A stretch of 55,457 nt of DNA, the filler included, from Sluysia triapertura (lineage: Eukaryota): assembly GCA_046118255.1 (NCBI GenBank). It is 3 parts of 3 records of this genome, joined end to end, with 100 filler letters (N's around TTAATTAATTAA, not from the genome) between each part and the next. Parts side by side here need not be neighbours in the genome. Positions count along the whole stretch, not along the records: positions 19,367 to 36,653 come from JBJNIA010189941.1; 2 more parts are not named here. The stretch is one strand, 5' to 3'. The translations under genes and the position numbers were made by a program. A model generated the notes under the pieces. It saw nothing but the letters and a program-made list of their open reading frames with translations. It searched no databases and was not told the origin of the DNA. Positions 1 to 48,500 of this stretch are shown piece after piece. Each line of letters starts with the position of its first letter. Within the stretch, counting starts at the first letter, position 1.

Positions 1-1209
1 ATACTGAGGTTTTGAGTTTATTTAATTATTGAGTTTTGATTTAATAATTTGGGAAAATAAAAGTATTAAAAGACACAGCAAATAGATGAAAGTTAATACT
101 TATTGTTGGATCGGGTAGTGGTTATGTTTCTCTGTATAAAGTAGGAATTATGTCTTTTTCTTATTACTAAAGTAAGTATTCTCAATAAAGACTTTGTAAT
201 ATTTTCATTTGTGCTATTATTTTGATTACAAAGTTCAACCATTTTTTCACAGTTAAAAAATTTAATCCTAAAATACAAATAAAATAAAATTCATAATAAT
301 TCAAATAAATGCCAACCACAATAAAATAAAATATTGAATTTTCTTGCAATGTAATACACTTGTAGCTATTAAACTTGAAAGTAGTAATCAGCAAAGTAGT
401 CTCAGCGGTATAACGTGACTTTGATCTTCGATTTTCCTGAGTGGAGCATGGCGTTTGTAATTTCAGTATATTTTGGTTCTGAAATAACTTAGGCTGAAAT
501 AGCTATACGACACGTCTGTTGCGGTCTCTTATATTCAAATTAAATTTTTGTGACATCAAAATTAAGTTTCAAAAGCCAGTTTAAGAAGCGTTGTTCTAGA
601 TACACGTGCTGCTGAGAACTCATTTAAAATTTGGAAACTGGAACTGCTACTTATTTTATATTTCATGCTCCTATATTCATATTATTTTATCCCTGCTATT
701 AAATTTTAGTTATAAACATGTTCTAAATATAACAGCCATCAAAGGAATAATTATAGATTTTTTTACAATTATTTAGTTACAATTGATGATAAAAGTGTTA
801 AGAGTTTTATCAAAAGTAGTTTGATGTTTTTTTCTTTGTTTTTATATTCATGTATTAAATATACGATGTGCACTTAATTGAATTTTGTGTGGAAATTAAT
901 GTGCATTTCTAAAAAGACATGATCTCTAGAGTCTGACAAAATTTTTGACTAATTAGTTCGTTGATGGTAAAATATCACTTTCAATTTTGTTCCTTATAAT
1001 CTTAAATAGTCTGAATAATATTGTGCACATTCGTTTTTAAATTTGTAAAGTTTATGATTATGTGGTATGAATGTAGAGTTATTCCTAATGTAAAGAGCGT
1101 TAAATAAATCACGAAATGCGCAATATCTTTATGAATTTTTGAGTGGATAATACTTATTCATAACATACTTATTCTACAAAAATTTTGATTTTTTCGATAT
1201 TATGATTAA

Positions 1210-8555
<7,346 letters not shown>

Positions 8556-9520: not shown

Positions 9521-9544
9521 TGATGCTGGAAATGCCAAACTGTA

Positions 9545-11300
9545 GAACAAGAAATAAGTAAGAGATAGAATTATAAAGTATAGGAATAATTTACACAAAT
9601 GAATGAATTGCTGGAGCAATAATGATGAAAATGAAAACGTTTATGGTCATGTTAACAGCTGAAGAATACCTTCCAGAGTTTGTGGAAGCTTGAAATTGGT
9701 TTGGAAAACCTTTGCGAGTATGAAAACTTTTGAAGTCGTGAACCTTGAGGTCACTTATGATCTTATTGACTTATAGGTAATCTTGAAACATTGATAAGCA
9801 TTTGAGTAATCTAATGAAGTAGTTGAAATCTTTAAAATAAATTTAATACAGAAATAATTAACACAATGTAGTGAAAAAGGAATCAAATAGGTGAAGGTGA
9901 GAGAATGTAGAGTTTCCTGAATACCTTATATAGTGTCTTCTTATATAGTAAAACTTTAAATATAAAATAAAATGAAGTCTAAAAACAGATTAATTAATGA
10001 AAATCTTAATTAACTTAATTAAGAAAGAGTAGGTATTTCGTGAATAAAGTTTGAATGAGGAATTCCATGCTAAGGTTGAAACTGTGTATATTTGTTTTAT
10101 GAGACATTTCGTTGAAGGTACAGTTTGACGAGTTCATGAAATGAAAATTTGGTTTGAAAAATATTCGGAAATCAATTAAATTCTAAAAAGTGAAATTAAA
10201 TTCATTATTTTTTATGAATGTTAACAATATTGATGATTGTTAATATTAAAAACAATTTAAGTAAAGCAATAGAGTAGAATAAAGAAAAATAACGGTTGAT
10301 CATTAAGTATAAATTGGAACACTTAGAAGACATTATTTGCAGTTGATCACAAAAAGAAGATCCATGCTATTAGTAAGGTTTTATTTTATTTTATTTTGTT
10401 TTTAAATATTAATCTTAATTAAGAACGTTTTATTAGAATTATTTATAATAACATTAATTTGTAATCGATTGAATCATTTTTAGTAGTGCCTAATAAAGAT
10501 TTATAACTATATTAATTTGTAATTGATTTAATCATTGTTAGTAGTGCTTAATAGAGATTTGTAATAATACGAATTTGTAATTGATTTTTGTTTAATTAGT
10601 AAATTATATTGTTGCTTTTAATTCGATTTTCTTTTGTGGAGAATAATTATTATTATTAATAAATAAGAAAATTGTTCATAATTGATATTTGATATAGTGA
10701 GTACATAAACAATTAATTTTTTTGTAGTTATTTAAATTAAAATCCATTTAACGTAAATAATATTTTGAAAGGCTCCCAACACATTTAATAAAGTTTGGCA
10801 TGCTGTACCATGTTACTGTCAAGTTTATTATTGTCGGTTTAATTCTCAAAGAATGTAATAATGAATTGTGTGAGAGGATTTTTGATTTTAAAGCTCACGA
10901 ATTATTGGATAATGAGAAAGTATAAAAAGGAATTTTAAGTCAGAAGAAAATATTCGAAAAGAAATGAGAAGGTTCATTTTGATTTTTATTTATTTATTAA
11001 TTTAATTTATGTTTGTTTTTCTTTCGGGCCTTACGCAATTTTTTTAATAATTATATTTACTTTTGGGATTTATAATAATGTATTTATTGATTTTTATCTT
11101 TGGGCAATATCCGCTATATTAGTTTTAATAAATTTTAATGGATATTTTTTAGAAAAATGAATTAAATTGTATTGAGGAGATTCCCTTTTAAGTTTAATAT
11201 TGGTTAATTTTTGTTCACATTTGCTTTGTTATATTAATTGTATAATTAATTTTGTTATAATAGTTATTTTGTAGTTTTCTTTTAATTGAAACATGAGTTA
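9545..11300 (+). repeat. Dispersed repeat family A, copy 1 (includes ~59-bp tandem units at ~10435-10590)
   Basis: Blockwise similarity to 11745-13400 (e.g. aaatgaagtctaaaaacagattaattaa..aacttaattaagaaa; aattctcaaaga..aattgtgtgag). No recognisable ORF. Confidence 0.7.
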
Positions 11301-11744
11301 TTTATGTTGTATTCAATAGTGTCGTTTATACTTTTACTTTTACCAAATTACAATCCAATAATTAAACCAAATCGGAATCTCGATATATTATTTAAAAAAT
11401 TCACACTTATACAATAAAAATTCTTTTATAACAATACACCTCTATTATACAAATAAAACAAATTATTTTAATATCAAAACGTCCTTTATTATTATTAACT
11501 TCAAAATTACAAATCATTTAATATTATAAATCACTACCAGTGATGACACAACTCAAATAAAATAAATGTTGACAACCATATTAACTAAATTTAATGAATA
11601 AGGAACATGTTACTAACCCTTAAGTGTTTATATTACTCGGTTTCTAAGGAATAAGCCTTAATTTTACCACCGTTTCCACAGATGAATTGAAGCATCGTCC
11701 CTAAAGCTAAAAAGTTTGCAATTTCGTTATTGTCTTACTGTTGG

Positions 11745-13400
11745 GTTTGCCAAATTATGGAACAGAAAATGAGTGAGAAACATATAGAATTATAAAATGA
11801 AGAAATCACTGATACTAAGTGACGGATTGAACATCATAAGCAGAGTTGAAATAAAAATCATAAAAATAAAAACATCTGTAATAATAATAATAATAACAGT
11901 TAAAGAATACCTTGGAGTCCCAAAGAATTATATAAGGGTTTGAGACCGTATGAAAATTTGTGATAAACCTTTAAAGGCATTGCAATGCCTTTGAGCTTGT
12001 GAACTTTGAGATCATCTGAGACTTTATTAACCTTGATAAGCATCTAATTTCATCGAGTAATATTATAAAGCATTTAAAATCCTTGAAATATTTCAGAAAT
12101 AAAATTATTGTTATGGCATTAAGAATAAATTAGTAAGGCAATATTAACATGAAGAAGTAGAAAAAATTAGAGAAGTAAATGCGAAAAGATCTAGTGCTTC
12201 CTGAATTCCGTATAAAGTACTAAATAAATATTTAAACATAAAATAAGATGAAGTCCAAAAATAGATTAATTAATTAACTTAATTAACTTAATTAAGAAAA
12301 AATACTTTTTTGAGAATAACTTTTGAATGTGGAATGCTACGTTAAATTTGAAACTGTGTATGTATTTGTTTTAGAAAGACCTTACGATGACGGTGTGGTT
12401 TGACTGAGTTCATACAAGGAAAGCCTTAATATTTAGCAATATCAAATTTTAATTAATCTTTAATTATGGAATGTTGAATTTTTTATATTTAGAGTGATAA
12501 AAATGTAAACAGTGGAATATAGGATGATTGCTGTGAAAGAGGAGAATCTAGAAATGAGTTTGAAATGTTTGCATAAAGGCTTGTTTGATAATAAGAACCT
12601 TAAACATTTTTTCATTAGAAAATTGGGTGTGAAAAATCGGAAATCCATTAAATTCTAAAAAAAGAAATTAAATTCATTATTTTTATGTTAATAATATTGT
12701 TGATGGTTGTTTGAATGCGAGAAGTAATTTAAGTAAAAGCAGATTGAGCAGAGTAAAAGAAAACGATGGTTGATAATAAATCAAATTTTTGTGTTTTGTA
12801 CCTAATGAAGTTTGACAGAACGTACCTCTAATTATCAAAGTTGTTATTGCCGGTCCAATTCTCAAAGAGATTTTGATAATTTGTGTGAGCCAGTATTTGA
12901 TTGTGTAACTCAAAATTGATTGGATGATAAGAAATTATAAAATGAAAAACTTAAAGATTTTACAATGCAATCACACGATCAAAAAGATCTATGATTTTGG
13001 CAAGACTTCAGTATTTTATTTTTGTTATTTTGATTTTTTTATATTAATGATGATTATTATTATTATAATTAGAGATAAATTTTTGAGTGGTATCCTTAAA
13101 TTATTTTAATATTTGGGCTGTTTTATATATTGATAAATTTGATCTTTCTGAGGATCCCTGCCATAATTAATATTTAATCGTTATTAAGTAAGAATAAAAA
13201 TTATCCGAAAATATTTAAATATTATTAGAATTTCAACTTTTTAGTTATTGATAAATTAATTTTTGTAGCGTCACCTCTGGTTTCTTTGTATAGATTATTG
13301 TGGTTTTATAGTCATAAATATTATTGTTAATTTTGAAATTTAGTCATTTTTATTTAATTCATTTGTATTATCGTTTAAGCCGAAACTTGTAATAACGACT
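11745..13400 (+). repeat. Dispersed repeat family A, copy 2
   Basis: Shares blocks with 9545-11300, 15065-15170, 24330-24640 (inverted) and 55010-55160, e.g. actgatactaagtga..gaacat..ataagcag.gttg.aataa.aatcat. Confidence 0.7.
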
Positions 13401-16097: not shown

Positions 16098-17163
16098 TTA
16101 TTGATCTTCAATTTTTCGTTTCTTCTGAAGTTCTGAATGTTCATCTGCATCGTGCTTTCTCTTTTTAGCTTGTTTTTCTTTTTGATCACTTTCATTTATT
16201 TTATCAATAGACTTGAAGTATTTTTTACCGCGTACTTTTTGATATTTCAAATGAAATGTACCATCTTCTAGCATCTTATCAATTTTCGAAGGTTGTGGCG
16301 GGGGAGGAAATAAAGATTTTTCCTTCGAAGCAACCTAAATTTATTTTATAATTTTGAGAAAAAGTTTACTTTTGGTTTTCTTTTAATGTTTTTTTTCTTC
16401 GGCTCGATGAGTTTGAGAATAGGCCCCCAGTCTTTATCTTTCATTTCTGGTCGTAATTTTAGAGCCTTAATCATTTCATAACGCTTTATTGCGTATATGG
16501 GTAAATATTTCTTTTCAAATATATCTTTCACAAGTCGAACAGCATCATAAAAGTATTCTATTGGACCAATAACAGCAACAGTTTTACCATAAATGAAAAC
16601 TTTACAATTGGTACTACTAGTAAACATTTCTTTAAAACTATCTTGTTGCATTCTGTTTGCATATTTTGTTCGATTTTCTGGTACATCAACCAATTCGCCT
16701 AAGTAATCATCATTAAAAACTTTGAAAGCTTCTTCTACAGGTACGTAACGACATATAATGTTTAAGAACATTTTTGAATGTAATACTACAACTGGATTAA
16801 AACATGCTGCTGTAGTTTTTATCGTAATCTCTCCTTTTATTCTGTCTAATGATACTTGTAAACCCTATAATTTAAATAATTATAAAAATAAATTACATAT
16901 GGAGATATTTGTTCTTTTATAATGTGTAACACATTTTTAAAGTAATCATCTAATGCACGTGGGTATTTAACAGTATTTGATGATTCACATAATAAACGTC
17001 CACCAGGAATTTCATCTCTTGTTAACGGTTTATCCACCCAGTTTGGATCTATGTCTACTTTAACTGTTTCTTTAACTATATTCTTTTCTTTATTTATTTG
17101 TCCCGGTTGTAATAATATCCATCCAGGTTTAACTGGATAATCATGAACCTTATTATTTTTCAT
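16098..17163 (-). CDS. KRR1: KRR1-like small-subunit processome KH-domain protein, divergent (332 aa)
   Basis: Exons 17163-16897, 16864-16370 and 16334-16098; GT-AG introns of 32 and 35 nt, both phase 0, giving an open frame. KRR1 motifs in order: LL.ESS....P, LD.I.G..T.KTT....P, TNC.V...GKTV..IGP, PIY.IK...I..L...P..K..DW, FPPPPQPSKIDK.L..G. Confidence 0.88.
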
Positions 17164-18835
17164 GTTCTGTATTAAAACTTCATTTAAACAATATTTAAAC
17201 AAAAAAAGAATATGTGGTTTTAAATTAGCTGACAAAGATAAATATAAAACCTTTTCCCTAAATTCATAAACGAAAATATATTTGAGCTTTTGATACATAC
17301 GCATATATTCACAATATTACATTTGCAGTTGATTAAAAAGATAATATTTTGTTTAGTAATAGTTTCAATAATGGCTTTAATTTGAAATTTAACACTAAAA
17401 TAGAATAGGTTTCTTTTCTTTGTTAATAAATATAAAACTGTATATACTTCTTTGATTTTAAATTTATTAGATTGTTAATTTATCTGTAATGTTGCATTAT
17501 CAGGCATGATTTAACTGGGTTGACATTTCAAATTAAAAATAGGACTACTTTTTAATATTAACATAATCATAAATTGCTTGTTTAATTATAATTTATTTAG
17601 TGATTATAATTCTAAATTAAATACTAAAATAAAACAGGTGTTGTAAATTTTACAATAGTAAAAAATAATTTATTAATTTATATTGTACCAATATATACTA
17701 CAAAGTAAATATTCACAAGTGCTTAAATTAAATCATTCAATATAATACTTGTGAAAGGGAAACAAATGGTATATCGTTGTTTTTGTTTGAAAGTGAAGAA
17801 TTTAATTTTGGAAACCTTTACAAATATAAATATCGAGTATTATATATTGAGAATATTTTAACTTTTCTTATTCATCTATGTTTTTTATAATCCTTAGCGG
17901 CTAATATTTCTGGTTAATTATAATTCCATTCAATTTCCACTTTTGTAAGGAAATTAAATAAATTTACGACTTATAAGTAACTTTCCGCAATAAATCGAGA
18001 TTAAAATATAAGAGAATATACTTTCAGTCTGCTTTAAAGGAGAACTAAACAAAATGTTGTTTTAGAAATCAGTCTTAAATTCCTTTTACGAAAATTCGAT
18101 TATTATTGATCAATGCAATTAAATGCTGCTCATACATTTAAAAATTTGAATAATACTCATAAAATGAATTCAAATTTGAATTATCTTTATCAAACGTTAT
18201 TTGTGAATTTAACCTTAGATAAAATGATTATATAACCATCACGGCATATGAGAAATTAAGGTATGTGTACATAAAATTAGTTCGAAAACATTTATTAATC
18301 TAAATTGACAATGAAAAACGAAATATTTTATAAATTTTAAAATCAAAAATCAGATTCATTATTACTGATAGACATTAAATAATAAAAGGTATTTTAATCT
18401 GCGGAGTGACGTTTAGTAAAGTTTTTTCAATTAACTGAATGTTATCTGAATAATAATAATTAAATGTTAATATTTTTATCTAAAGTTTTATTGTATTATT
18501 TCTTTCCTTTATATTCTGAATGACATGCTTATATCATAAAAAATTTGAGGTTTGACCCTAACATTTGAAATTTAAACAATCCACATTTGGTTTTGTCTAA
18601 TAAAATAAATAAAAAATTTATTAAAAAGAATTTTTAAATTGTTTAAACTCGTAAAACATTTCATTGTTTCTAAGTGATAATAAATTTTCATTTTTTTACT
18701 TTATCAAATCTAATTTTAATTTTTTTATTGATTGTACATTTTAATATATATTTTATAAGTAAAAGAAATAATATAAATATTATAACAAATTTTCTTCAAA
18801 AAATTTCATACTTTATATTTATTTGAAATTATTTT

Positions 18836-19266
18836 ATGTCAGAATCTGAATTGGATAGTAATTTTTAATTTTAAATTTATTCAAAAGTAGATTTTGATGA
18901 TATTTTTAGTAGTGATGATGAAAATAAAGTTAAATTTGCGAAGTCAAAGAATTTAAAATTGGACAATTTATCTAAAAATAACGATGTTTCTGTTGATACC
19001 AACAAAAATAAAGTTGAGCTGCAAAAAAGTGTTATTTCCAATAAATCAAATTCAGTATTACCTTATGACATTGAAAATTCTTCGGAAACAATTTATAATA
19101 GCGACAGTAAAACTAAAACTATTAAAGCAGCAACGGCAGTATTAAATGATTTTCTTAAGCCAACGTCTACTTTAGCAGAACAAGAAAACCCAAAGTCACA
19201 TTTAAAATTTAATTCATTACTTAGTATTTTTTATAATTACAAATGATTTTTTTAGAAAAAGATAAT
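18836..19266 (+). CDS. Unknown protein, 5' end (acidic/Ser-rich N-terminus), truncated by assembly gap
   Basis: ATG at 18836; exons 18836-18857, 18891-19223 and 19256-gap joined in frame by 33- and 32-nt GT-AG introns (MSESELDNFDDIFSSDDENKVKF...). Divergent from KRR1. Confidence 0.65.
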
Positions 19267-19575
19267 NNNNNNNNNNNNNNNNNNNNNNNNNNNNNNNNNN
19301 NNNNNNNNNNTTAATTAATTAANNNNNNNNNNNNNNNNNNNNNNNNNNNNNNNNNNNNNNNNNNNNTAACGTTCCACTGACACTGCTGTCCTAAGTTTTG
19401 ACCCTTCTATCAACCCTTATTNNNNNNNNNNNNNNNNNNNNNNNNNNNNNNNNNNNNNNNNNNNNNNNNNNNNNNNNNNNNNNNNNNNNNNNNNNNNNNN
19501 NNNNNNNNNNNNNNNNNNNNNNNNNNNNNNNNNNNNNNNNNNNNNNNNNNNNNNNNNNNNNNNNNNNNNNNNNNN
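19267..19575. other. Assembly gaps (N-run containing an artificial TTAATTAATTAA linker, a 55-bp island, then a second N-run)
   Basis: The same 100-bp N44-linker-N44 structure occurs at 36654-36753. Confidence 0.95.
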
Positions 19576-19619
19576 TTTGCTAAGAATGACTTACTTCCTT
19601 AAGTAAGTTTTTTGATTGT

Positions 19620-20480
19620 AAACAATATGTTTAAGAAAATGTACGCTATCATGTAAAAATTCTATTATTTCTTCAATATTAAGAATTGCATCAATCACTA
19701 CTATATTTAAAAATTCAAGTATATCTCTTGTATTTATACGTTCAGTATTATTAATTCAGTAATAATCTTGATATCATCAATATTAGCAACATCAATTTAA
19801 TATCAATTATTCTTTTTCGATTTCCTTTGCTAATAATGTAAAAGAGTTACTTATACCAATTTTATCATCTTGAGGCGTTTCGTCATTTAAATCTTCCTTT
19901 TGCAATATGTAAACTATTCTACCAGGAATATTATATCTATTACTATTATAATTATTATTGTGTGAAAAATTAGCATTACTTTTTGTAAATTTGTAACTCG
20001 TTACTTATAATAATATCTATCGTTATTATTATTCTTATTATAATTCTTATCTCTTTTATACGCATCCTCATTATCACATACATAATTAAGACTATCCCTA
20101 TACTTCTTAATTTTTTAACTACATCCTTAAAAGGTTTACCATTTATCAGATAACATAGATACTTAAATTTGGACTTAGACCAGTTTTTAATTTATCAACT
20201 AATGTTATTTCTTTTTATCATCAAGGACTTTCGCCCTTGCTAAAAGGCTTTTTAGAGCGCAAGCGAATTCGTACACTGTTTTGTTGTCTTTTGTTTTCTT
20301 ATACTTAACTTAGCGTAGTGTTTTCCTATGTCATCGAGTGTGACTTCCTCAGAAAAAGCATTTATAAATGCATTCCATGTTTATTTATCTCTATCATTTT
20401 TTTTCTTATATGTCTGGATCGCTACTCCATTTAGATAATTTTGAATTCTTTTCATTTTTTCAGCTTTTAGCTTCGGTACT
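19620..20480 (-). mobile_element. Decayed LTR-retrotransposon gag (Ty3/gypsy-like capsid), with a possible protease relic downstream
   Basis: Read across frameshifts: EKMKRIQNYLNGVAIQTY..TWNAFINAF..AKLSIRKQK/DNKTVYEFACALKSLL../EITLVDKLKTGLSPNL/KY. This fits the L.G.A..W.Y, W..F...F, L....Q...TV.EF...L and GL.P capsid pattern. VIDAILNIE near 19690 weakly resembles a protease DTG region. Confidence 0.7.
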
Positions 20481-20544
20481 ACTATGGTATACGAATGAAA
20501 AGTCGCAGAGATCTTCCTCTGCTCCATTAAACTTACGCATTTAA

Positions 20545-21325
20545 AGTAATGCCATTATGAGGCATATATCTCTGGCTAATTGTGCAATGCATTCCACAAA
20601 GTTGAAACACCAACAATATTAATGGCCAGTAGAGAGGAAGATGGTTTGATCTTCATTTCTAAAGGGACAATAATCCGTTGTGGAAAAGAAATAACAGAAA
20701 CTAATTAAGGGATCTATTTATCTGAAATGACAATACAACAGGCTAAAAAGGCGTTGATGCGAAAAATGTAAAATTGTATACTTATTTTAACAATAAAATC
20801 GATTTTTACTACGACTTAGGTTTAATATCTTTAGATAAGATTTACCAAATTATGGTTACTCGCGATTTCCAATTGAATAAGGGAATTTTACGCACAACAT
20901 TGGCAGTAGCAATAACCAATCCAGATTTAATCGCACCATTACTAGCGCTAGAAGAAGGAGTTTTTGGTCGACTAATTGGAGAAGCGTTATATGCATATAA
21001 ATGTAAAAAGGTTGAAGTTCATTGGATATCAACTACCGAATGTACAAACGAATTACCTATATTCTACGCTAGAATAGAAACGTACTTAGAGCCAGAGTGA
21101 ATTTTCAAAATAATAAGGTTTAACCAAAATTAATGCATTGCTCCAATGCCATGGTTCCGGAATATAGAATAGATGATAATTTGTAGATATCACTACCACA
21201 AAGGAGCCAAGTTAAAACTCCAGAAATTATAAGACTGACATAATTAAAATGAAAATTAAAATTTTTAGCCACGAAAAATATTCCAAATTCCGGTATTTAT
21301 ACTAATGATGACATACAAGCGGCTT
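20545..21325 (+). pseudogene. Chuvirus-like (class III, gB-related) fusion glycoprotein relic, central ectodomain
   Basis: ..RCGKEITET..IYLSE../NVKLYTYFNNK..NPDLIAPLL..EGVFGRLIGEALYAYKCKKVEV..TECTNELPIF..YLEP*..C..P..NSGIYTNDDI. Follows the CG..T, Y.N.K, P..A..G....GE..Y...C..V.V..C..ELP..P, GIYT motif order of chuviral/retroelement glycoproteins. Contains stops and frameshifts. Confidence 0.8.
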
Positions 21326-22249
21326 GGCGGGAAATATAATATTTTATTGTATAGTGTTTGTAAATCATTTTTGTCTACTGATAATGCTTGTATATTATGA
21401 ATATCTTGTCATATCTAATCATATATTATATCATTATGTTATTTTATTAAATATTAAATGTTATTTAAAAAAATTAATTGATGCTCAAAGAAATCAATAT
21501 CTGTCAACAAATTATTTAACATATTATTTAACAAATTGTATGACATACGTTCAAGTATTTTAAAGGAATATTTTCATATGCAATTATTTTATAAAGCTAC
21601 TAATTCAGTTCATATAGCGTTTCTGTAATCTATTATTTATTTTTATTTTGATATAATTTCATGCCATGTTTATGGATATTTATTTACGGGTAGAGCTGTT
21701 TTATCATTCGGCATATCTTGTACATATTTGGCTATATTTTTACTCATTCCACATTTTAAAAAGCATGCCTATATTGGTATTATTTTAATATAATTTTAAA
21801 CATTATTTTTATTACTTCATCCTGTCTCAATTATTTGAATTCAATCATAAATGTTGATTTCGTTGTTATATTACACTTTATTTATGTTATTCCAATTAAA
21901 ATTATTATCAATCATAGTTATTGCACTCATTTTTATGTCATTTCTTTGCCATTTATTATCATATTGAAATTATAAACATTATGAACACCGATTTAAGTCA
22001 AATGTATTACTTGGATTCGAAAAATTACGTCATAGTAGTATTTTTCTCTATATTGTTACTTTTGACATTTTTTAATGAATTATATTTAAGATTTTTACAA
22101 TCATTACATTATAAAGGTGTTTTTATGCATTAATCCGAAATGCTAAAGGAAGAATAGAAATTAAAATAGCACAAGTTAAAATGTATTGGTTTAAAGCTAT
22201 TATACCCGTGTATAAAGCTTTTGTGTTTTTGTGTCTTTGTGTTCTATTT

Positions 22250-22830
22250 AATTACATTAATAAAATGTTAAATTTGTTAAATTGTTATTCTTTAAAGGCC
22301 TTAAGCCTAGTTTATTAATTCGTAAAGTTAATAGTTTTTTAATGGTTATAAAATTAAATTGTTCTCATTTAGCTAGAATTTTAAACTTATTAAATAAAAA
22401 AATTTAAATAAAATTTCATTCTTCTAATAATTTTTGTCAATTAAAAAATTAACTAAAAATAATTTTAATTTAATATCCACAAAACATAAAAAGCCTTCCC
22501 AACAATGGTTTAAACTAAACTAAAAAAATTTAGAAAATTCAATCATTTTGTCACATTAACATTGACATATCACTGATATTATTTTAATGTTTTGGAGAGG
22601 ACGTCTTCATTTTCAAATAGTTTAAAAAATAAATAAGGGAAATAAATAAAGGAAACTTTAACAATTAATTTAACAATAATCTGATATATTTGCTTGGAAA
22701 TTTTGACTACTCACTTAATGAAACTTTTATTTATTTTAAAAATTTCATAAATTTCAAAACAAAAACTTTAGGCTTAATGCCTTTAATGAATATCAAAATT
22801 TAACAATGAACAAGTTAACTAATCGAACAT
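22250..22830. mobile_element. Degenerate inverted-repeat element
   Basis: gttaaattgttattctttaaaggccttaagcctagtttt (~22278-22315) is matched in reverse complement by aaaactttaggcttaatgcctttaatgaatatcaaaatttaac (~22762-22804). Confidence 0.45.
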
Positions 22831-24249
22831 ATTATTAAAAGAAAGGAATAAAAATAAAAATATATAGTAACACACGTGATTAAACATTAAGGCTGAATAT
22901 CCTAGAAATACGTTATGTTAGAGTTTGATCCTCCCAAGTTACATCATAAAAACAAACTTTATATTGTATTTTTATAAACATTAATTGTAGATATTTATCC
23001 ATAATAGTCTTGAAATTTTTGGTCATTAAAATTTGTAAGCATTTCATAAATATACGTAACTTAAATATTACGAAATTTTTTATCGATTTAGGATTAATTT
23101 TTAATTATCATTTTTTATACCTTTTAATTTCAGGTATCGTGAATCAGTCACAGCAAATAAACATTTAAATTGCAGATTGTACCATGAAATAGAATTACAT
23201 CATACCAAATATATACAATATCAACAATCATTTAAATATCAAATAAATTAGATATTAACAAATCAAACTCGTATTTGAATGATAATATACACAGAGTCTA
23301 TACAACCTCATACTACACAAAATACAACGTACTGAAAAATCAACTACCGCACAATATTAAGTCACCAAAAATATGATATAATCAAAATAAATCCCATTCT
23401 AAGGTCTGAGTCCAAGACCACCAAAAACCATTGTATCCTTTACAACACAAAGACTCACGACTAATTCTATTGAAAAAAAACTATTAACATAAATCAGAAT
23501 AAAACTAAGACAGAAACTATAAATAGAATATAAAAATGCTCCCAATATATCATTTTAATTAAATGTTTTTAACATACATCTATTGAAGCACAACCAAGAC
23601 GTAAAAAATTAATTGCTTACCCATCAAAAAGGCATTATAATTTTAAATCGCGAACATTTGCACTACCCCTGCCACGGTCGTGTGTTCATACACATCGACC
23701 AAAAGGCACCCAATCAGATCCATGACGAGCTAAAGGAAAAGTCACGTCGCTAACAATTTGCCCATCACACGAAAAGGCAAAACAGAAATTCAAAACTTAG
23801 GAAATAATTTCAAATCAAAACGTTGAAAGGTGCTTTTTGACACATTTTTAAAATAAATAGATCAATAAATTCAAGTAACATTTAAATTTAATATAAATAT
23901 AATTAAAATAATTTAAGAGACTTTAATTATTAAAAGAAACCCTAATTTACAAGGTTAAATTTTGTTAAAAAATTGTTTAATTAAAGTAATTTAAAAGGAA
24001 ACGTTTTTAAAATTTAAAATTTTGTGTACAGATAAATATTATGTTAAGGTCACACACAAAAATATTGCGTGGATCGATACCTAGCACAAAAGAATTTTCT
24101 GTTCCAGATCACTCACACATTAAAAAATCAATTACAATATATATATTTCTTTTATGGAAAAAAGAAAATTATTTTAAAAAAGTAAAAATTTTTCTTCTCT
24201 ATAGGAAAAAGTAAGCCTTATTAAATTTTATACATTTTACTTTTTAGAG

Positions 24250-24328
24250 GCAATACAAAGCTGAAAATAGATGATAATAGAAGCAATACAAAGCTGAAAA
24301 TAGATGATAATAGAAGCAATACAAAGCT
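24250..24328 (+). repeat. 33-bp tandem repeat, 2.4 copies
   Basis: Unit gcaatacaaagctgaaaatagatgataatagaa, exact copies. Confidence 0.9.
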
Positions 24329-24329
24329 T

Positions 24330-24640
24330 ATCGATGTTTTAAGAGTACTTAAAGGTTACTAAGGTCTCAGATAATCTAACAGTTCACAAGTTCAAAAGTA
24401 CCTTAATACTTCAAAGAGTTTTCCAAGTCCATTTCAAACTTCCATAAAGGTCTTTGATAGATCTTTCATAAACTTTCATAGATCTTTGGAATGCCAAGAT
24501 ATTCTTTAGCTGTTAACATTATTATAAATGTTTAATTTATATGATTCTTATTCCAACGCTGCTTATAATGTCCAATACATCACTTAGTATCAGTTCTTTC
24601 TTAATTTTGTAGTTCTATATGTTTCTCAGTTGGGCACTCC
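24330..24640 (-). repeat. Family A fragment, inverted
   Basis: Reverse complement matches about 11775-12050. Confidence 0.7.
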
Positions 24641-24999
24641 CAACAATATCTTCTATTTTACGATCGATACAATTATTTGCACAATTGGTAAGGACTTATT
24701 TCGAAAAAAGAATAAGAAAAGTGTTCTCAAATGTGATGTTGAGGCGAATTAGAAAGGCGATATTACGATAGTTTATGAGTTGATGTCTTTATTTTTAAGT
24801 TTTGTAGTTTGTGTGATATGAGTTGAGGTGGTGAAATATCGGGAATATTAATGAGTGGATTTTATGTAAATATGTGATTGTACGTGGCAATAAAAGTACA
24901 GTATACGAGTGGGACCCCACATTAATATTTACTGTTATAGAATTAAAGTTATTGTTTTTATTAGCATTTATTCCAGCTGCTTGCGAATTTCAAATTATT

Positions 25000-27354: not shown

Positions 27355-30300
27355 CTTAGTCTCGTAGTATTTTGATTTTGATAAATACAAATAACTGGTT
27401 ATAGTTTTCTTTATTGATAAGTATTATGACGCTTCCTAGGCCTACAAGGTGGAATGACCGACGTACAGATTATCTATTTTATCTATTTATCTATTTTTAT
27501 TTTCTTTAATTCACTCAGGTTTCAATTAATTATCATATTTACTTCAAATTTTTATTGCTTAGCATTGCCGTTTCGTCCTACCTTGCTTTATATATAACTT
27601 TAACTTTAGAATCAGTTAGTTTTACATTTAGTTTTACTCTTTCGTTTAAACTTCTTTTACATCTAAATTTGCTTTTATTTTTATAATCAAGTTTACCTTT
27701 ATCTTTAATCTCACATTTATATCCAAAGTGAAAAACGAAAAACACTTGATTCCGGCACCATTAATAAAAATAAAGACAACACTTGATTTAGTAAAAAGTA
27801 AAATTTAGCACCGAAATAATAACAATACCAGTGCACTACCTTGATCCATTGGAAGCTCATCATCCAATAATACCATGAAATAAGAAGTAACTTTAAATCA
27901 GGATTCATTGATTCACCACTATGAAATTTATAATTATTAAAATTTTTAAAATAATACTGACACTTATGCAAGTTATTTTGAAAAATTGAGAACAATGTTG
28001 AGCATTACTAATTATTTTTTTTAATTGATGAACACGACTGATTTGGTTTTCTTTATCATAATTAATTATTACAAAATTGAAGAGTTCGCCGATATCACGA
28101 GACTTATTACTAAGGGCTCGTTCATAGGATTTAAAACACAAATAAATTATTGTTGTTCAGGGATTTTCTTCTAATGCGACAACATTCTGGAAATGATTTA
28201 CAAGTTTCTTAAATTAATTTTCTAACTATTCTTAACTATAAGTATCTACTCAAAAAACTAGATATCCGATTAAAGAAAAACAACACTATCTTAAAAAACC
28301 CAAATTTTTATTACTTATAACAAAATTACAATATTATACGATGGCTATACAGTAATAAGAACAATTATATTAAATCAATTTTATCAAACTAATGATTATA
28401 ACAGCATATTGCGTCAAATCAAATTGGTAATGTATGTCTTTATAAAAAATAATATCAAAAGGCAAAACAAAATTATACAATCAATAAGGAGCGCTGGGAA
28501 TTTATGAATCTTAAAATAATTATCGAAAATTTAAAAAATTTTAAATATTTTTTAACAATTATTGTTTTAAAGTTATGTATTAGGCACTAAAAGCACTAAA
28601 CTTATTAATAATTCTCAAAAACTTTGCGATTCAACAAATATACTAATAAAAATGTGTATCTAAATTGCTTTAATAAATTACCGAACTATTAAACTATAAA
28701 TGATCAAAGTCACAAATATTCTAAAGTTATACAAAGTTTATTATTGTATTTTGTTCTTATTTGAAGCTTTATTTGTACACATACGTCATGGTCTATGATT
28801 TAAACAATTTAAATTATTTATTTTCTTCACTTTAATTTATAATTATTTTAAAATTTATTTTATTCTAATTTAAATTGTTTAATTTAAACTTCTACAGATT
28901 TAAAACTTATGTAACTTTAATTATTAAAATTTAATAATTACATAAATCATTCGCAATTTTTGTAATTGAACTCAAATATTGTTCGAGATACGTACATACT
29001 GTTCGAGACAGTTTTCTATATTGATTAATTGGAAAAATTTTGATCATGCTTTGTAATCCTGAATTGTTCGCGTTTTATGTTCCTGAATTTAATTAATCAC
29101 AGCGATCCTACTGTACTATCCACATTACTTGCATTTGGTATTCGAGAAAGAATCATTTTCCCAGATCAGTTTTTTTTGCTAATTTTGTAAATTTATAATT
29201 GTAAGTTTTTGTCTCTGTTAAGAGACATTATATCTACTTAAACTCGTGATAAATACATCTCTAGTTTCGCTGGAGACAATTCATTTATTAAAATTAAATA
29301 AATCATTTAGAATATTGTTTTCTAATTATATAGACTTTGAATTAGTTATTTTGTTTAATAAACTTTTGGAGACTTTGTCATGCTATATTGATATAATTAA
29401 AGATAAAAGAAATAGAGAATAATAAAGAAAGAAATTAATCTGTAAATTTAAGTTAAAAAGATAACAAAACTAATATAAAAGAAATCCAAGAGACGAAGGA
29501 AAAGAAAATACGAAATTTATCTCTGAAATTAAATTGGAGAAGTTTGTCTACAGTTTAGTAATCTATTAAAGAAAAAGTATTGCAGTACCCTAAATAAAAT
29601 CTTTTAAGAATTATTATAAAGAATTTCATAAAGCCAACTTTCCATCATTGATAAAGTTATTATATAAATAAAGATTAAAAAACATTAATAGAATTATTGT
29701 ATTATTTAAAATAATTAAGACCAATCGTTAAGAAACAATAAGGTGTAATAACTCCGTTAAGCAACATAAGGTATATTACGTTATTAAAATAATATACGAA
29801 TTGATAAAGAAAAATTTATAGACCCTCTTTAAAATTAATAATTAACGACGCGCTAAGCTTAAACCGTTAACATAATATATTATTTGCACAATAGTTTAAA
29901 ACACTAGCAGTATACTATTTCATATTCAAAATCACAAAATCAACGATGCAAGTGATAAATTATGAACCGCTTGTTTTTAATTAAAATTATAATTTTATAT
30001 AAATATCATTCAATGAACTAATAAAAGTAACCAATCAATTTAATCAACTAAAATTAATTAATAAAGTGTACTTTTAAATAAATTAATTGCGCTGTCCTTG
30101 CGCGTTTTTTTAAATAAAAAATGAAAAGTATTCTAAAGTCAGAATTAAAAATATCATACCAATAAAGATAAGACACAGAAAAATTATCTATGCATTCGAT
30201 GGTGTTACACTTTTTATTTTAGATAATTTTATTGATTCATGATTCGAATTTATTATCATCGAAAATTTTATACTAATCAAATTTATTACCAATTTAGCTT

Positions 30301-31442
30301 TGTGACACATTCCAATGTTACAGAACGTACCTGGATCCTACATACACATGGTGGCTTACGCGACTTGCAGAGTATGTTACGCACGAGGTCCTTTTCCAGC
30401 TGGACCATCATTTCGTGAATATCCAGAATACCGTGCTCGAAAGGCGTTTTCTCTTTGCCTTGACAATCGAGCTTTCCTGCTCCTGATACCAGTTCTTTTT
30501 CTCTATCGTTATCCGACCTTTCTTCTGTGTTTGCTTGACCTGTCTATGTGCGTACGATGATTTTATTTATTTTGTAATTATTTTTTATGCTTTGTACTTC
30601 CTTGTTTCATCCTCTTCTCTTTACATCTGTGGTACTAACCCTCTTCATTCTTTTTGTGGCCCCTTTGGTAGTGGTCCTGGCCCTACCGACGATGAAGATG
30701 ATAGAGCTCTTCTTCACTTCCATCCGCAGCCGTAACACTTGTCTCATTTCCTCCACGTAACACCCCTTCATTGACAGTCCCCGTTACTTTAAGAGGTCCA
30801 TTATTGGTCTTAACCCACATTGCTCCTTCTGCGCCAAAAACCATTTCTTCCTTCTGGTTATATTACTGAAGGTATCTTCACGCCAAAAATAATAAGTGCA
30901 CAATTTCCAGGGGTAAACTTCTCTCTTCCCGCATTTATGAGCTCCTCAATCACCCAGTCCTTTCCGCTTTTTGGAGGACTTAAATTTATTTATAATTTTA
31001 TCAAGTTTTAAATATAAATTACACTTTAAATTATTTGAAACGATTAAAATTTTAAATATAAACAAATTAAGAAACAAATGAGGCTTAATGCATTTAAAAA
31101 CAATACACAATTTTAAAACCAACAAATTAACAAAATTTTTATTATGAAACAAGTGTAATATTATTAGAATAAAAAGCATACATAACAGTCTCTATTGATT
31201 CAGCAATCAGACCACTTGATAATAGTTCCATTGGTAAGAATTTTTTGTATTCATAATTGCAAATTTGTTGAATAATACCATAAAAATCATAATTAACATG
31301 AATTCTTGTATAATCATTTTAACATAATTTTAAATATTGCATTTTTTTAAATCTTTGTAACTGCCAATTAAGTATTAATATTTTGTATTTATTTAATTTT
31401 TATAATTTCAGATACCATGGAGAACTGACAACAGCAGTATCA

Positions 31443-40200: not shown

Positions 40201-42517
40201 TATTATTAGCGTTGTTGCAAGATTTGGATTGTTGTTCTTTTTCATTATGCATATATATCTTTTTATTGTTATCACTGATTTTATTGTTATTATTTCTGCT
40301 ACTTATAAATGTTATTATAACTATTATTAAAATCTTTATGTTAATATTGTTGCAATTCTTCCTTATTATTATTTTTATTTTCATTACATCTGCTTCTTCG
40401 TAGTTGTGCTAAAAATGAAAATGAACTTAAAAGCCTTATTTTATATGGATTTAGCGAGGTAACAGACCTTAATTGTGATGTGCATTTAGGTAAATGTTGA
40501 AGCAAGATAAATTATAATGTTAAATCAAAAATATGTTTTATAATTGCTTTTAAATCAAAACTTTTTTAATTCATAAACTCATGAATTAAAATTTTGATTC
40601 TTCGATTATTAAATGACTAATTAAATTTACCTCTATCTGATCGATTTTAGCAGTGATTGGTTCCAAAGAAAGTGTTGTGATAGGTTCTTGTAAGACCGTC
40701 ATTACTTTTTGGAAATCTTGTTTCATATTCTTGTTTAACTCGTCGAAATTATTTACATTGTCAGACAATTTCGTAAATTTCTTTTGTGATTCTTCTAGCA
40801 TACACTGATAACTAACCACACTGTCTTTTCTGGATGCGTGTACACTAATATACTCTTGATGTGATTGCTGAACGGGATTCAATCTTTGTATTTCCACCAT
40901 CTCATGTTCCAACTTCTCTATTGTGTCCAGCATCTGATTACAATCTTGAACAGCCACGATCATTTCGTTTAGCGTAACCAATTTACTTTTAATACTTTCT
41001 TGTTCTAATTCATAATTTGAATTTGTATTCTGAAGATCTTTAAATTGTCCAAGTGATTCTTGCATCCATTGTTCTTGTTTTTCTTTCACAAAGTGTAATT
41101 GTTCTGTTATTTCTTGCTCGATATTTCTAATTCGCTGATTTTGTTCAGAAATTAATCTTGCTATATCATTTTGTACTTTCATCACTTCATTTCTCAATTG
41201 GATGGTTTCACGACAAATCAATTTTTCATACAAATCATCGATCTGTCCTTTTAAAACACTTACCTGTTCAGAACATGTCACCAATTTATCTAATCGTGCA
41301 TTTTGAAGTTCGAATTTTTTCGAATAATTTTCAATAAAATTTATTTCAGGTATCGGTATTAATTCAATAGAACGATTCACATCTTTGATTTGAATTTGTA
41401 AATTGTCATAGATTTTTATTAAATCTTTGAAATATATTTTACATGTTTTTAATTTATGGTCCACTTCTTCTATCAATTCATTGAATTCTTCTTGACTTAA
41501 TTGTGGAACTAATTGAGGCATACATTTGAAATTATCTTCAATACCTTTCAAAATACCTTTGATTTTAGCTATAGTTACCGATCTTGCTGGGTCGGCATTC
41601 GCATCATTGATTAATAATTTGTAAAATTCAGTAATTTCTTTATCTATCCCCATTAAATCGTCATTTAATCTGTTAATAATGGTTTCTTTGTCAATAAATT
41701 TCGCTAATTTCATTTTATTTTCTTGCGAAGAAATCAATAATTTGTTTAATATTTCTGCTTGTTCTTCACTATTTAAGTCAACTTTATTTATCTCATGCTG
41801 CATTCGATTTAGTATATCGATATTATTTTCACAATCTGCTATGGTAGCTGGTGTGTGATTCAAATTATTTTCATATTTTTCTAAATTTTCAGCAATTATT
41901 TTTATATTATTTTTTATGTTCTCTTCATATAAACAGAAATTTTTTGTAATTACATCGATTTTCTTAGTTAATTCTTCGCGATGTTCGTCGAATAAATTAT
42001 CATTTTGTTTTTCTTTTTTAAGGACAATATTATTTAATTGTAATTTCATTTGTTCTAAATTCATAATCAAATCTTTATGCGATAACAAAGGTTGTTGTTG
42101 CTGTTGTTGTTGATGTTGGATCTCAAAATTATCCAAGTCATTATTCACATCTTCGAAATTCTGTTTATAAAATAATGCCTTTGTTTTGTTATTGTTCAAC
42201 TGTTTAAGAATTTCTTCACTTTTACTAATTATTGATTTTGCATCTTCAATAAATTCTATTACATCTTTTGGTATTTTCGGAAATTTTTCAATATTTATTA
42301 AACATTGATTTAAATTTTCTTTATTGTTTTCTATACAATCACAACAAGCATCTATTTCTTCAATCGGACTGCAATAATCTGGAATTTTTTCTGCTTCAAC
42401 GTTGTCTGTTAAAATTGACAAACTAATCTTATATTTATCTAATTCTTGTTTTATTATTGAATATTCTCGTTCCAAGTCTTCCTTTTTCCTATTCAATTCT
42501 TTCACACATTCCAAATC

Positions 42518-42556
<39 letters not shown>

Positions 42557-45500
42557 TTCTTTATTTAAAGATTCAAGTTCAGTGTTTTGTTCACTAATCA
42601 TATTCAAAATTTCTTCGGAAGTTAAATTATTTGACGAATGATCGATGTCATTTAGTTTTTGAGTCAACTCAATTGATCGGCCACGTAATGTTTCGTTATT
42701 TATTGTCGTATGCAGTTGCTCTTCATGTTTCGCTATTTTATTGGCCAATTCCGACTTACCAATGATTAACTTACTAAGATTGGCACAATTCGTACTATAT
42801 TTACAGTCCGGTACTATTAGAGATTGTACGCGTTCTATATTACATTTCAATTTATTGATATTAAATTCGGGACTATTTTCTTCCAGTGCTACAGAATCTG
42901 TAAGAATTATTTGCAGTTTATTTAAAGATTCATCGATTATTTCTTGATCTTGATTAGCCAATTGTAAATCAATATTAAATAAAGATTTCAAGTCGGACAA
43001 TTTCTGTTTTTCTTTCAATAACAGATCAATTGTGTTACAAGATTGCTCTACTCGACTGTCGTTTCTCCACGCTATTTCTGTGCCATCGATTGATGATTGG
43101 AGAATTCGAAAATGATCGAAAATATAATTTTCAGTCAACGTAGATTCAGTATTTTCTAAATATTTCATCAGCATATCAATATCTACTCTCAGACGATCGA
43201 TATATGCTAAACGAGTACTTTTCAATTTTTCTGATTCGATTTTAGCATTAATAGTTCTAATTAATTCTTGAAAATGATTCTCTTGCTCTGTTTTATTGTG
43301 TTTCAAATCAGCTAAATCTAAACAGTGTTTATCATCAGTATTGAATATCTGAATAAAGTCTGAAAATGCTTTCTCCAAATTGTTTTTCATTAATACTAAT
43401 TCTTCTTCATCCAATGAGAAATTGTTCAATTTAGATTGATTTTCTGCCAGTAATTCATTATTTTTCACCAAAATTTGACTGTTTTCACTGTAAATCGATT
43501 TAATATTTGAAATATCCGTTTTTCGATTTTCGATTTTATCTGTAATTTCGTTAATAATAGCTCGAAACTCATCGCTTTCACAACTTAACGATTCTATCTT
43601 ACAACACAATTCAGTGAATTTCTTCTCGTTATTTCCTAATCCTACTTCTAAGACACTTAATTGGTTCCAATTATTTTCAACATTAGATTGATCTTCATTC
43701 AAATCTTTTTTCATTTGTTCAAATCGATTAATCAATTCTTCTTTTTCTCTCATTTCTGTGATTTCAACATCAGTTTGATCTATTAATTTATCAACTTTTT
43801 CTAACAATGTTTCTCCACTTTTTCTGCATAAATGAGCATCCTCCAATCCTACATTTAATTTATTTTCAACAATATCGATTAATTTACATTTAATTCCTTC
43901 TAAATAATCTTTACGTTCTAACAAATTGTTATTGGATTTATTTCTATCGATTTCTTTATCGAAATCTTGAATTTCATTCAGCACACCTTCCACAGAGTCT
44001 GTCTTGTCATCAAATTCCAATTTCATTTCTCGCATCAATTCTTGTGCCGTTTCGTCATCGGAACCCTTATCTAAATTTGAAGAACCTAGCAACTCAAACA
44101 ACTGATCTTTCAAATTAAATTTTCGGCAATCATTCGATTTAATAAAATTAATTGATTCCACTAAATCATCTTTAGTTAAGTGATTAATTTTATTTCGAAT
44201 TATATCAAAAAAGTCGTCATGAATTTCATTATTTTTCAAATTTAATTCCCGTATATCATTTTCAATTTGCTGCTGTCGTTCTTTTATGGCATCTTTTCGA
44301 GTTTGTAAATCAGTCGATATTTTATCATATTTTGTTTGCAATTCGATGCTAGTGTTGTCTAATTCATCGAAATTAATGACGATGACCGAGTTATCCAGTT
44401 TCAAGTGTTCTTTTGTGTCATTAGTACGCTGAATTCGTCGGGATAATTCCTTCAATTCCTCAATTCGATCTTCCACAGTACAAAGTGGCATGCTCGATAT
44501 TGCGGCAGCATTCATAAAATCCAATTCGTCGTTTACTTTTTGAGCGTCCACTAAACATTGTTTCACATTCGCCAAATTCGCTTTAGTCAAATGAATTGTT
44601 TGACATATTAACATACTTTGTGTGCTAATTTTATCAATTAAAGATGCTTTGCGAGCTTTTAAATCCGGATTATCGATTTTGCTTTCCAATTTATCGATTC
44701 TATTAGGTATAATTATCTCCATTCCATCGACATTTTCTTGTAGGGAGTCAATTAATTCATTAATACGATCATCACACAATGGTTCTGGTGGATGTTTCAA
44801 TGTAGCATCGATTTCCTGATATGTTTTAACTCGTTCGCAGACCTCTTTTTCAACTTCTAACAAATTATCGATCAATTCTATTTCATTATGGACGATTCGT
44901 TTCATTTCGTTCAATTCTTTTGCCTTTTGATTTAATATGTCAAACAAATCTGAATTTTTCCCGTCGTATTCTCGACTAATGTCTTTGTTGAACTGTTCCA
45001 CTTTCTGCAATTCCTCATCCACAATGTCTTTATATTCTTCCAAACTTAAATCGCCACCAAACATCGTCAATTCTGAATTACAATAATCATTTACTTTATC
45101 GAATAATAATATCCTTCGATTTAGTTTTACTAACTTTTCATCGATATCGTTTTTTAGCGATTCAAACATTTCGAAATTTAGACATTTGTGTAGTTTACTG
45201 AACGATTCTTTTTCAGTACTATCCAAATCGTTTCTAATCTCCTTCAAGTTTCCTATTCGAATAACTAAATCATCATTGATTTTCTTCAGATTTTCAATTT
45301 GATTTGTATCCAAATCCACTTCATCCAAATATACTTGGATATTATCCAACTCAATTTGCCCATTTTTTAGTTTATCTTGATAATATTTGTATCGATTTAC
45401 ACGGTTTGTAAATAGCGATTGTCTATCCTCGAAATTAGTTTCCAATTCATCGATTTTATTTCTCAATTCTTCTTCAAATTGCTTTAAGTTGTGCTCATTG

Positions 45501-48500
45501 AATTTGTCAATTAAATCATCAATCTGTGTATTAAAATTGAATATGTTTTCTTCCACCTCTTTAATAATCAATTGTGTATCATCAATCAGATCATCATCCA
45601 TTAGTTCTTGATTTACATTATTATTAATTTGTTCTAATTTATCAATACACTCATCAGCATTATCAAGTATATCGATTGATTTCGATATAATATCGATTTT
45701 AATTCCCAATTGATCGATAATTTCTGTACAATCTTTCAGTATACGTGAATTTCTTTGATTTAATTTATCACCATCTTTAATCGATAATACTTTCTTATTC
45801 AATATTTCATTTACAAATTCGATTTTTTTATTCAGATTTATTAATTCTGTTTTAAAATCGTTTATCAGATTTATACTGTTGTAATTTATATCTAAATTAG
45901 ACATTTCACAGTAAATCTGCATACTAATATCATTAATGACCTTATTGGAAATTACCAATTCATTTTCCACGAAATCATAAATATATTTCATTAACTTATC
46001 ATTAATATTACTCGGTTTTGTGCTCAATGATTTCAATATCGGAATCGATTTATAACTATCATTGATTGGGTCAATATTTTCCAAAGATTTATTCAAATCT
46101 ATCAATGTTTGTAATGCTGCTTTATCATAAATTGATAAACCATTTTGTTCGATTTCATCGTTTACTTTATTTTCGAAATTATTTAACACCATAAAAAATT
46201 TATCATGTTCTTGTTTTAATGCATCAATTAATAATAATTTGTTTTGCAATTCATTTTCAAATGTATCGATATTAACACAATAATTTCTATTGGTTAAATA
46301 TTCAATATTATTATTGAAATGTTTAAATATTTTTAAATCATTCATTTTCATCAAACACAAACTCCTCACGCACTCTATGTCATCTATTGAACTAACATTT
46401 TGGATTTGTTCGTCTATTTCATTTGATAATCGATCCAAATCAATCAATTTAGCAACAAACAATTTTGTAACGGCGTCATCGAAATGGGAATACTGTACCA
46501 TTCTTAGATCTGCAAATTGTATAAGAATTTCCTGTAACATTGGGGATAATGTGGATTCTTCAGGATCCACCGAATATAACTCCAAACTCGATTTGTAATT
46601 TTGTAAATTAGTTAGCAATCTCGAATCGTCTGAAATTTCAATACTAAATTTATCAATTCCAGTTAAAGCCGATTCAATGGTTTTGTTCATTTTATCTTTC
46701 TTCAATTGATTATTTAATTGATCAAGTTTTTCAATTTTATCTGCCAGAATACTATTGTAAGGATTTATTACTGATTCGGCGGTATCGAACTTGGAACCCA
46801 GTTTTTGTTCTACACATTTCAAGGATTCTAATTTCTGTTCCACAACTTTCACTCCAGATTCATCATCCACTCTATTGATTTCATTGTCAAATTCATCGAT
46901 TTTGGCATAAAAGTCTTGCCGTGTTTCAAAAAATTCTTTATTACATTCATAAATATTGATTGATTCGGTTTTCACTGCTACATAAAGATTTTCCATTTTT
47001 ATTAAATTTAGTTTGATAAATTTCGACACTTCTGGATCTTTAGCTTCCAAGGTTTCCCAATCTTGATTCAATTCATTCAATATTGCTTTTGTTTCTTGAA
47101 CAATCTGTTCTACTATTCGTTCTTGTTGAATTAATTGGCTTCGAATAATAGAATCGTCTATGTCAGTCTCTGTCCACTCAACAGGTATAATTTGTTCCTT
47201 TAATGACATTAATTTTTCGGTCTGTCTATTTATTTTATCTTTCAGTTTCATTGCATCTGAAATATGATTGGCTTTATTCCGTATGCGATCTAAATTCGTG
47301 TCATCGATTAATTGGAATTTTTCAACAGTTTCTTGCAATAAATCTGGAGATTGCATTTTCACGCGTTCATCATTTAATAATTCATCGACTGAAGATTTGA
47401 CAATCGAAATGTCGGGACAAAGATCACAGAATTTATTCAATACTTGGTTGTATTGTTCCGACGATACCGAAGAATCATCCAAGTTACTTAAATCAACTGA
47501 ATTAGTAAGATCAACGAAATTCGAAATCCAGACGTGTAATTGTGACAATTTCATTTGTTTTTCGTGGCACTGTTGTTTGTTCCAGCTTAAATCTTCATTC
47601 ACGCGTTCAATCCTACTCGAAACAGTCGAACATTGCTCTTGCAACATTTCTATGGTACTTTTCACTTCTACTTCATCAATCAATTCCACACTACTGCTTT
47701 TAATTTCAGACAATAATTCAGTCGACTGCTTTATGAAATTGATTTTTTCAAACAGTTCTTGGTGTTGTTCAATAACTTCATTGATTTTGTCGCAATTCCA
47801 GGTCTTAATAGCCATTTCTTCTTTGTCTAATTCACGCTCTACTTCGTTAATCAATTCAACAAGTTTATTCACAGCACTTTTATATCTTGGATATGATTTT
47901 AATCGATTGAAATTACTAATTACACTTTCCCATTTTTTAATCAATATATAACTCTCTTTGGAAATTTGATCGTTACTGTCATCTAGATCGATTATAATTT
48001 TATTAAGTTGCTCGATAATTGGTTGATATTGCAACGAATGAGATTGGATTTCATTTAATTTATCAGCTGCAACACTAGGTTCTGATCGTAAAATATCTGT
48101 ATGTTCTTTATGATACTTCTGAAACCACGGCTTTAATTGATTTTTTATTGATTGTAAATGAATAACTTTTGTTATTTGAACTTCGGTAGATTTTGCAAAT
48201 AAGAGTAAATTCTGAAAATAAGGTTATTTTAAATTATTTATTTACTATTGCAAACCACAAATAGAAAACGTTAAGTGAGATTAATCATTATTATTAATAT
48301 GTACAAATAATATGTACAATAATAATAACAAACTAATTTGAACATAATAGACATTGTAAAATGCACTTAATAAAAAAGGTGTGCAACCCGTTAAACTTTT
48401 AAAAATACAAAAATATTGTTAATTTTCGAAAAAATAAAATAAAATTTTCAAGGAAATTCGAGAATTATGATTGGCTGCTTTAATTCTAATTATTCTTACA

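Follow-up and report, generated by a model that had tools for sequence, protein, structure and literature searches.

Divergent gag and chuvirus-type env relics in a flatworm genome as probable rearranged debris of Burro-like Ty3/gypsy retroelements

A decayed Ty3/gypsy-type gag (minus strand) and a decayed chuvirus-type env (plus strand) lie head to head in the window, the 55,457-nucleotide stretch of Sluysia triapertura DNA (filler included) analysed here. Their homologies diverge on opposite strands ∼40 nt apart, within the 100 bp of the original prediction. We consider that the locus is probably rearranged debris of Burro-like Ty3/gypsy LTR retroelements of a flatworm; as gag and env are on opposite strands, it is assigned to such debris of the lineage and not to a member element. 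Both relics are visible in a six-frame translation of the window, and both are interrupted by stops and frameshifts, such that no functional product is encoded here. Though real, the finding is largely ordinary: a fossil left by an env-bearing gypsy lineage that is already known. The features concerned are as follows.

19630–20098, minus strand: post-gag region, with an Asn/Tyr-rich stretch followed by weak similarity to the spacer that precedes env in the relative P0019 (shuffles, low-complexity match).
20099–20543, minus strand: gag relic, a decayed Ty3/gypsy capsid domain extending from the N-terminal motif of the capsid as far as the end of its C-terminal lobe (alignment, profile, and motif blocks against the gags of relatives).
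20544–20584, no strand: joint between the two homologies, ∼40 nt, too short for an LTR plus leader (ends of homology, spanning contig).
20580–20599, no strand: 20-nt palindrome, near-perfect (9 of 10 pairs) and without a loop, located where env homology begins.
20585–21351, plus strand: env relic, a decayed internal slice of the chuvirus-type (HSV gB-fold) env of Burro-like elements (PF24664 match, alignment to relatives).
55128–55457, minus strand: second env scrap, comprising stem and transmembrane part with one stop, cut by the window end (PF24664, E = 4.1e-13).

Profile searches support the predicted chuvirus-type class III glycoprotein: a stop-free piece of the env relic (20747–21097, plus strand) matches Pfam family PF24664 (Monjiviricetes_fusion) with E = 4.9e-17 over profile positions 299–413 of 653, and a further plus-strand piece (21091–21345) matches with E = 5.6e-7 over positions 425–493 (61.6 and 28.3 bits, respectively, with a cut-off of 27). 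A frameshift-aware alignment to relatives runs from 20585/20598 to 21351 (∼254 codons), with 28%–48% identity to the 12 relatives aligned. Counted against P0006, of which only residues 392–645 are represented, the relic is broken by three frameshifts (near 20600, 20750–20765, and 21100) and six stops; alignment to relatives shows it to be without a signal peptide, the N-terminal half of the ectodomain, and the transmembrane C-terminal anchor. On sequence grounds it is to be regarded as a fossil and not as a working fusogen. A plus-strand segment at 20315–20374 was considered as env domain I (match at E = 1.1; z of 4.4 in one of five env queries); it lies inside gag, is not colinear with the env relic, and was taken as chance.

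An unfiltered HMMER search with the stop-free env piece gave 148 matches, 21 of them at E ≤ 1e-10; 12 of these 21 were scanned with Pfam, the other nine being fragments of 100–447 aa. The proposed link of the env to Ty3/gypsy elements is borne out by nine of the 12 scanned relatives, in which the env-bearing chain also contains protease, RT, integrase, zinc knuckle, or gag, the remaining three (P0007, P0016, and P0028) having no retroelement domains beside env. The domain order in the relatives is gag, zinc knuckle, ubiquitin-like and Bcl-2-like modules, env, one to several aspartic proteases, RT, RNase H, and integrase. P0155, for example, has env-PR-RT-RH-IN and ankyrin repeats on a single chain of 4844 aa, and the pol of a relative from the same cluster has Ty3 Gag-Pol as its closest PDB match (E = 1.9e-122). 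Only Ty3/gypsy domains were found in the relatives, BEL/Pao gag/pol domains being absent. Up to seven aspartic-protease-like stretches per polyprotein, some past the integrase, are seen in P0006, P0015, and P0155. P0019 (NCBI HBK71150.1; 2627 aa, env-PR-RT-RH-IN) is deposited under a Flavobacteriaceae MAG and probably represents a mis-binned animal contig.

A quick tree of 52 rows places the env relic inside a 22-row group of polyprotein envs with an SH-aLRT of 93, which is below the tool's star threshold (98 with the long-branched P0044), and apart from 29 stand-alone glycoproteins, including two named fish chuvirus G proteins. The tree labels were set by the analyst, five "polyprotein" rows are without a shown protease or RT, and the tree's 30 stand-alone rows are a hand-picked subset of the 148 HMMER matches. 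A model of P0007 (pLDDT 82.3; 46% identical to the stop-free env piece) has herpesvirus gB as all of its listed Foldseek matches (best E = 1.1e-13), with a query TM of only 0.18–0.36; the gB-like fold is thus modelled for P0007, not for the relic. These analyses place the env relic in the env group of the Burro-like GAG-ENV-POL lineage. The independent capture originally suggested is not upheld: PMC6431247 already describes the pairing in planarian Burro, as does PMC13524379 in flatworm GAG-ENV-POL elements, and in the tree the relic falls among polyprotein envs.

The same data bear on whether the env could instead be a stand-alone chuvirus glycoprotein EVE integrated beside a gypsy element, an arrangement common in arthropods. 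The matched family, PF24664, is one of Monjiviricetes proteins, and the available part of PMC10084718 describes such EVEs as often flanked by gypsy fragments. However, the 117-aa env piece is 31%–33% identical to the chuvirus G proteins P0040 and P0051, compared with 40%–57% for its ten best matches, the chuvirus G proteins lie in the other half of the tree, and many diverged copies are present in run X1 (below). The identities, the domain context, and the tree largely refute the EVE reading, which we regard as extremely unlikely.

A metagenome scan yielded five confirmed loci (L001–L005) from 496 pattern matches. In L001, L002, and L004, env is inside one long frame with pol (gag is shown in L002 and L004), and in L003 it is in frame behind gag with one stop between; env is on the gag/pol strand in four of the five fetched loci, the fifth (L005, 1.8 kb) being too short to tell. 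No locus was matched in GTDB genomes (P0019; alignment A1), metagenomes (A1), or IMG/VR (A1). Downstream of the polyprotein, L001 (10617–12104) and L002 (12085–13470) contain an accessory ORF with a DEDD exonuclease match (PF00929, E = 1.4e-5 and 1.1e-3, respectively), which recalls the DEDDy ORF3 reported for rotifer LTR elements in the part of PMC5408684 consulted.

Env orientation in the relatives does not favor the antisense env of the original prediction, in which a gypsy family would carry env in antisense and a deletion spanning the LTR junction of tandem copies would have brought it up against gag. Its geometry fits the locus, which is divergent with 5′ parts missing; however, none of the four informative loci and none of the nine domain-bearing chains has an antisense env, every informative relative having env in the gag/pol sense, the env relic groups with in-frame polyprotein envs, and no such element appeared among the papers listed by an open-access literature search. 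We therefore consider this reading very unlikely; the fallback of the prediction, that the two pieces came together by chance or secondarily, is the better fit. Similarly improbable is a Burro-derived family in which env has moved out of the polyprotein to lie antisense or divergent to gag, or in which the joint has been amplified as a non-autonomous derivative; were it true, the freed env or amplified joint would be an arrangement unseen among the relatives or in the portions of the literature consulted. If the divergent layout were a family trait, an in-frame fusogen would have been freed from its polyprotein and come under separate control.

Pfam scans of three window pieces of the gag relic matched no gag domain, and the relic was therefore tested against the gags of the relatives, which are of Ty3/gypsy type (matching PF03732, Retrotrans_gag; PF19259, Ty3_capsid; and the dArc2 capsid). 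Alignment to these on the minus strand gave a score of 85, which none of 100 shuffles attained (maximum 42), and the relic is the best match in the window to a six-sequence gag profile (E = 1e-4). Of four gag motif blocks, three take first rank among ∼110,700 six-frame window positions and are colinear on the minus strand (at 20543, 20470, and 20288); the remaining block ranked only 47th. The results point to a Ty3/gypsy-type capsid gag at the locus, as had been predicted. The relic carries at least four frameshifts and several stops. While the proposed orientations and the decay were correct, the limits were not: gag, thought to read leftward from ∼20480, reaches ∼20543, and homology of the glycoprotein, thought to read rightward from ∼20545, begins near 20585. 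Likewise, the supposed loss of both N-termini applies to env but not to gag, where the capsid N-terminal motif is present and hence no more than a short leader can have been lost.

The gag relic, compared here with Burro-like gags, is only 20%–31% identical to them, so the gag family is not fixed. A chance nesting has an appreciable probability, though in our judgement it is less likely than rearranged Burro-like debris: a Burro-like env scrap would have come to lie next to the gag of an unrelated, env-less Ty3/gypsy element, both being trimmed by later deletions. This low identity is in its favor, as is a match in the adjacent spacer that does not discriminate. Past gag, an Asn/Tyr-rich stretch resembles the linker of the relatives (a low-complexity match to L002), and the post-gag spacer matches the pre-env spacer of P0019 weakly (1 of 200 shuffles); P0019 is top of 1087 protein windows, but with a score of 49 compared with 47 for unrelated proteins. 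That the Burro-like P0019 nevertheless ranks first counts against chance nesting. Helix and helix plus ubiquitin profiles did not single out the spacer in the window, and a Pfam scan of 19577–20100 gave nothing. Searches on the minus strand left of gag found neither a Bcl-2-like module nor the inverted N-terminal half of env, with N gaps at 19267–19575 hiding part of that side; the window yielded no pol fragment.

The joint itself is covered by a 444-nt contig of run X1 (20189–20632, 0 differences; X1 may be the window's own source), demonstrating that the head-to-head layout is not a scaffolding artefact. The contig has a depth of 14.2, and single-copy flanks in the same run have depths of 9–15. 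No LTR-like direct repeat or LTR pair was detected around the locus, where the N gaps on the left limit the search. In the relatives, one strand carries both gag and the matching part of env, separated by hundreds of codons. Given ∼40 nt, opposite strands, and no LTR between the relics, the joint must have arisen as a secondary breakpoint whichever model is adopted, and the reading that fits best is an inversion or deletion after insertion. The palindrome at the start of env homology is a possible strand-switch scar; it was noticed post hoc, there are 12 such palindromes in the window, and they arise in 57 of 20,000 shuffles of the joint zone without a loop and in 53 of 5000 with loops of 0–4 nt (0.3%–1%).

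Both gag and env pieces have many diverged copies in run X1, in which 4347 contigs were placed on 19580–24500, 2187 of them less than 90% alike. Summed contig depth, which is not copy number, was 976–26,331 over gag bins and 31,433–128,031 over env bins. The second env scrap, 34 kb from the first relic, is 68% identical to P0019 over 98 aa, while the first relic is 34% identical to it over another region; the scrap probably represents another subfamily. The many env copies together with this scrap imply that env debris is common and that neighbors arise easily. Directly past the env relic, 21400–22550 is repeated (summed depth ∼340–3,700 in run X1) and T-rich on the plus strand, and a Pfam scan of 21340–22300 gave nothing. 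A ∼300-bp repeat occurs in four diverged copies (9533–9802, 11739–12034, 24323–24628, and 55019–55166); the copies at 9.5–11 kb and 11.7–13 kb extend into a longer shared repeat, and the copy at the window end begins right where the env homology of the second scrap stops. A Pfam scan of the minus strand frames of the 24200–24700 copy gave nothing.

In rearranged Burro-like debris, the explanation we prefer, both relics would derive from Burro-like Ty3/gypsy LTR retroelements of a flatworm, whose intact members would encode, as shown in the relatives, Gag, zinc knuckle, ubiquitin-like and Bcl-2-like modules, Env, protease(s), RT, RNase H, and integrase in one frame. Intact elements would process this polyprotein and would rely on env to spread between cells; cleavage by the element's own and host proteases would presumably free a membrane-anchored gB-fold fusogen. 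A dead copy, or two neighboring copies, may then have been rearranged after insertion, with an inversion or a strand switch with deletion placing the gag start against the env middle and removing the LTR, the N-terminal half and anchor of env, and pol. The sequence comparisons argue strongly for an env derived from a one-frame gag-env-pol element; we have moderate confidence that gag comes from the same lineage, and likewise that the joint arose by inversion or strand switch with deletion.

A single rearranged element is favored by the similar decay of the two pieces (∼3–4 breaks per 100 codons), which also counts against chance nesting, and by the weak P0019 spacer match (negative in the profile test) and the post hoc palindrome; counted against it are the missing inverted N-terminal half of env, the missing pol, and the fact that all intact relatives are from other hosts. 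Chance nesting gains from a region packed with repeats and from the second env scrap 34 kb away, but it too requires a rearrangement, because the joint is without an LTR end.

The predicted flatworm host is supported by an MCM3 exon (4318–4650), whose 14 best organism-named matches are all from flatworms (among the 120 of 158 matches listed): 13 trematodes at 105–111 bits and one cestode at 88, the next named match among those listed being a tardigrade at 80, with Macrostomum at 74. The exon is only ∼60% identical to trematodes, implying a flatworm without a close match among those listed. From these sequences we assign the AT-rich host to the flatworms. Elsewhere in the window, 16346–17316 (minus strand) contains a divergent KRR1-like KH-domain gene (E = 6e-11 and 2e-8), perhaps a paralogue. 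A 2544-codon stop-free frame at 40586–48223 (minus strand) is coiled-coil-like by eye, and a Pfam scan of the 2544-aa ORF gave nothing. A probable host gene start with an apparent 31-nt intron, read by eye, is present at 18838–19246 (plus strand), and the gag/env debris may sit in an intron of this gene. Broken frames at 30270–30950 lie in a GC-richer island (36% over 30001–31000 compared with ∼25%); a minus strand Pfam scan of these frames gave nothing, and they are possibly another mobile-element scrap. No tRNA genes were found.

The window extends the list of flatworms in which Burro-like, env-bearing gypsy debris is abundant, and possibly holds two env subfamilies within 55 kb. Such abundance supports, and does not alter, the published view that Burro-like elements are old residents of flatworm genomes. 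Burro/GYPSM1 elements are described, in the part of PMC6431247 consulted, as giant gypsy-like LTR retrotransposons of planarians, with a 4873-aa ORF1 and an env that matches arthropod and fish mononegavirus fusion glycoproteins; this env occupies an in-frame position between gag and pol, preceded by ubiquitin-like and BCL2-like modules, and decayed Burro fragments are reported there for Dugesia japonica. The same two modules occur in the closest relatives of the env relic, and the Burro ORF1 resembles P0155 (4844 aa). In contrast to Burro, only gag and an env slice are present at our locus, on opposite strands and without LTR or pol.

Chary and Hayashi, in the portion of PMC13524379 available, report HSV/gB-type env on Ty3/gypsy elements across animals, with a GAG-ENV-POL order for gB-type "errantiviruses" in Platyhelminthes, Nematoda, and Bryozoa, and list nine flatworm elements, from Macrostomum, Prostheceraeus, and Schmidtea (six). 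Other ORF arrangements were outside their search. By eye, 21 of 40 positions are alike between the env piece at 20604–20723 and the tail of the Smed_errantivirus_2 env segment given there. As in the relatives of the env relic, the flatworm "errantiviruses" as described combine a gB-fold env with a Ty3/gypsy pol; they are intact and sense-oriented, whereas the locus described here is decayed, with its genes on opposite strands. Anakin-type BEL/Pao elements of mosquitoes bear a chuvirus glycoprotein (cited in the consulted parts of PMC13524379 and PMC10084718), which belongs to the same superfamily as the env; according to the former, the mosquito BEL/Pao glycoprotein has also been found beside gypsy pol. 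In contrast, the relatives identified here have a Ty3/gypsy-type pol, with env before pol in one frame. In the part of PMC10084718 consulted, gypsy fragments are reported beside arthropod chuvirus EVEs, but no gypsy capture. The chuvirus glycoproteins themselves (Wenling fish chu-like virus, P0040; Hardyhead chuvirus, P0051) are PF24664 members like the env relic, but are stand-alone RNA-virus genes of ∼650 aa and form a separate group in the tree.
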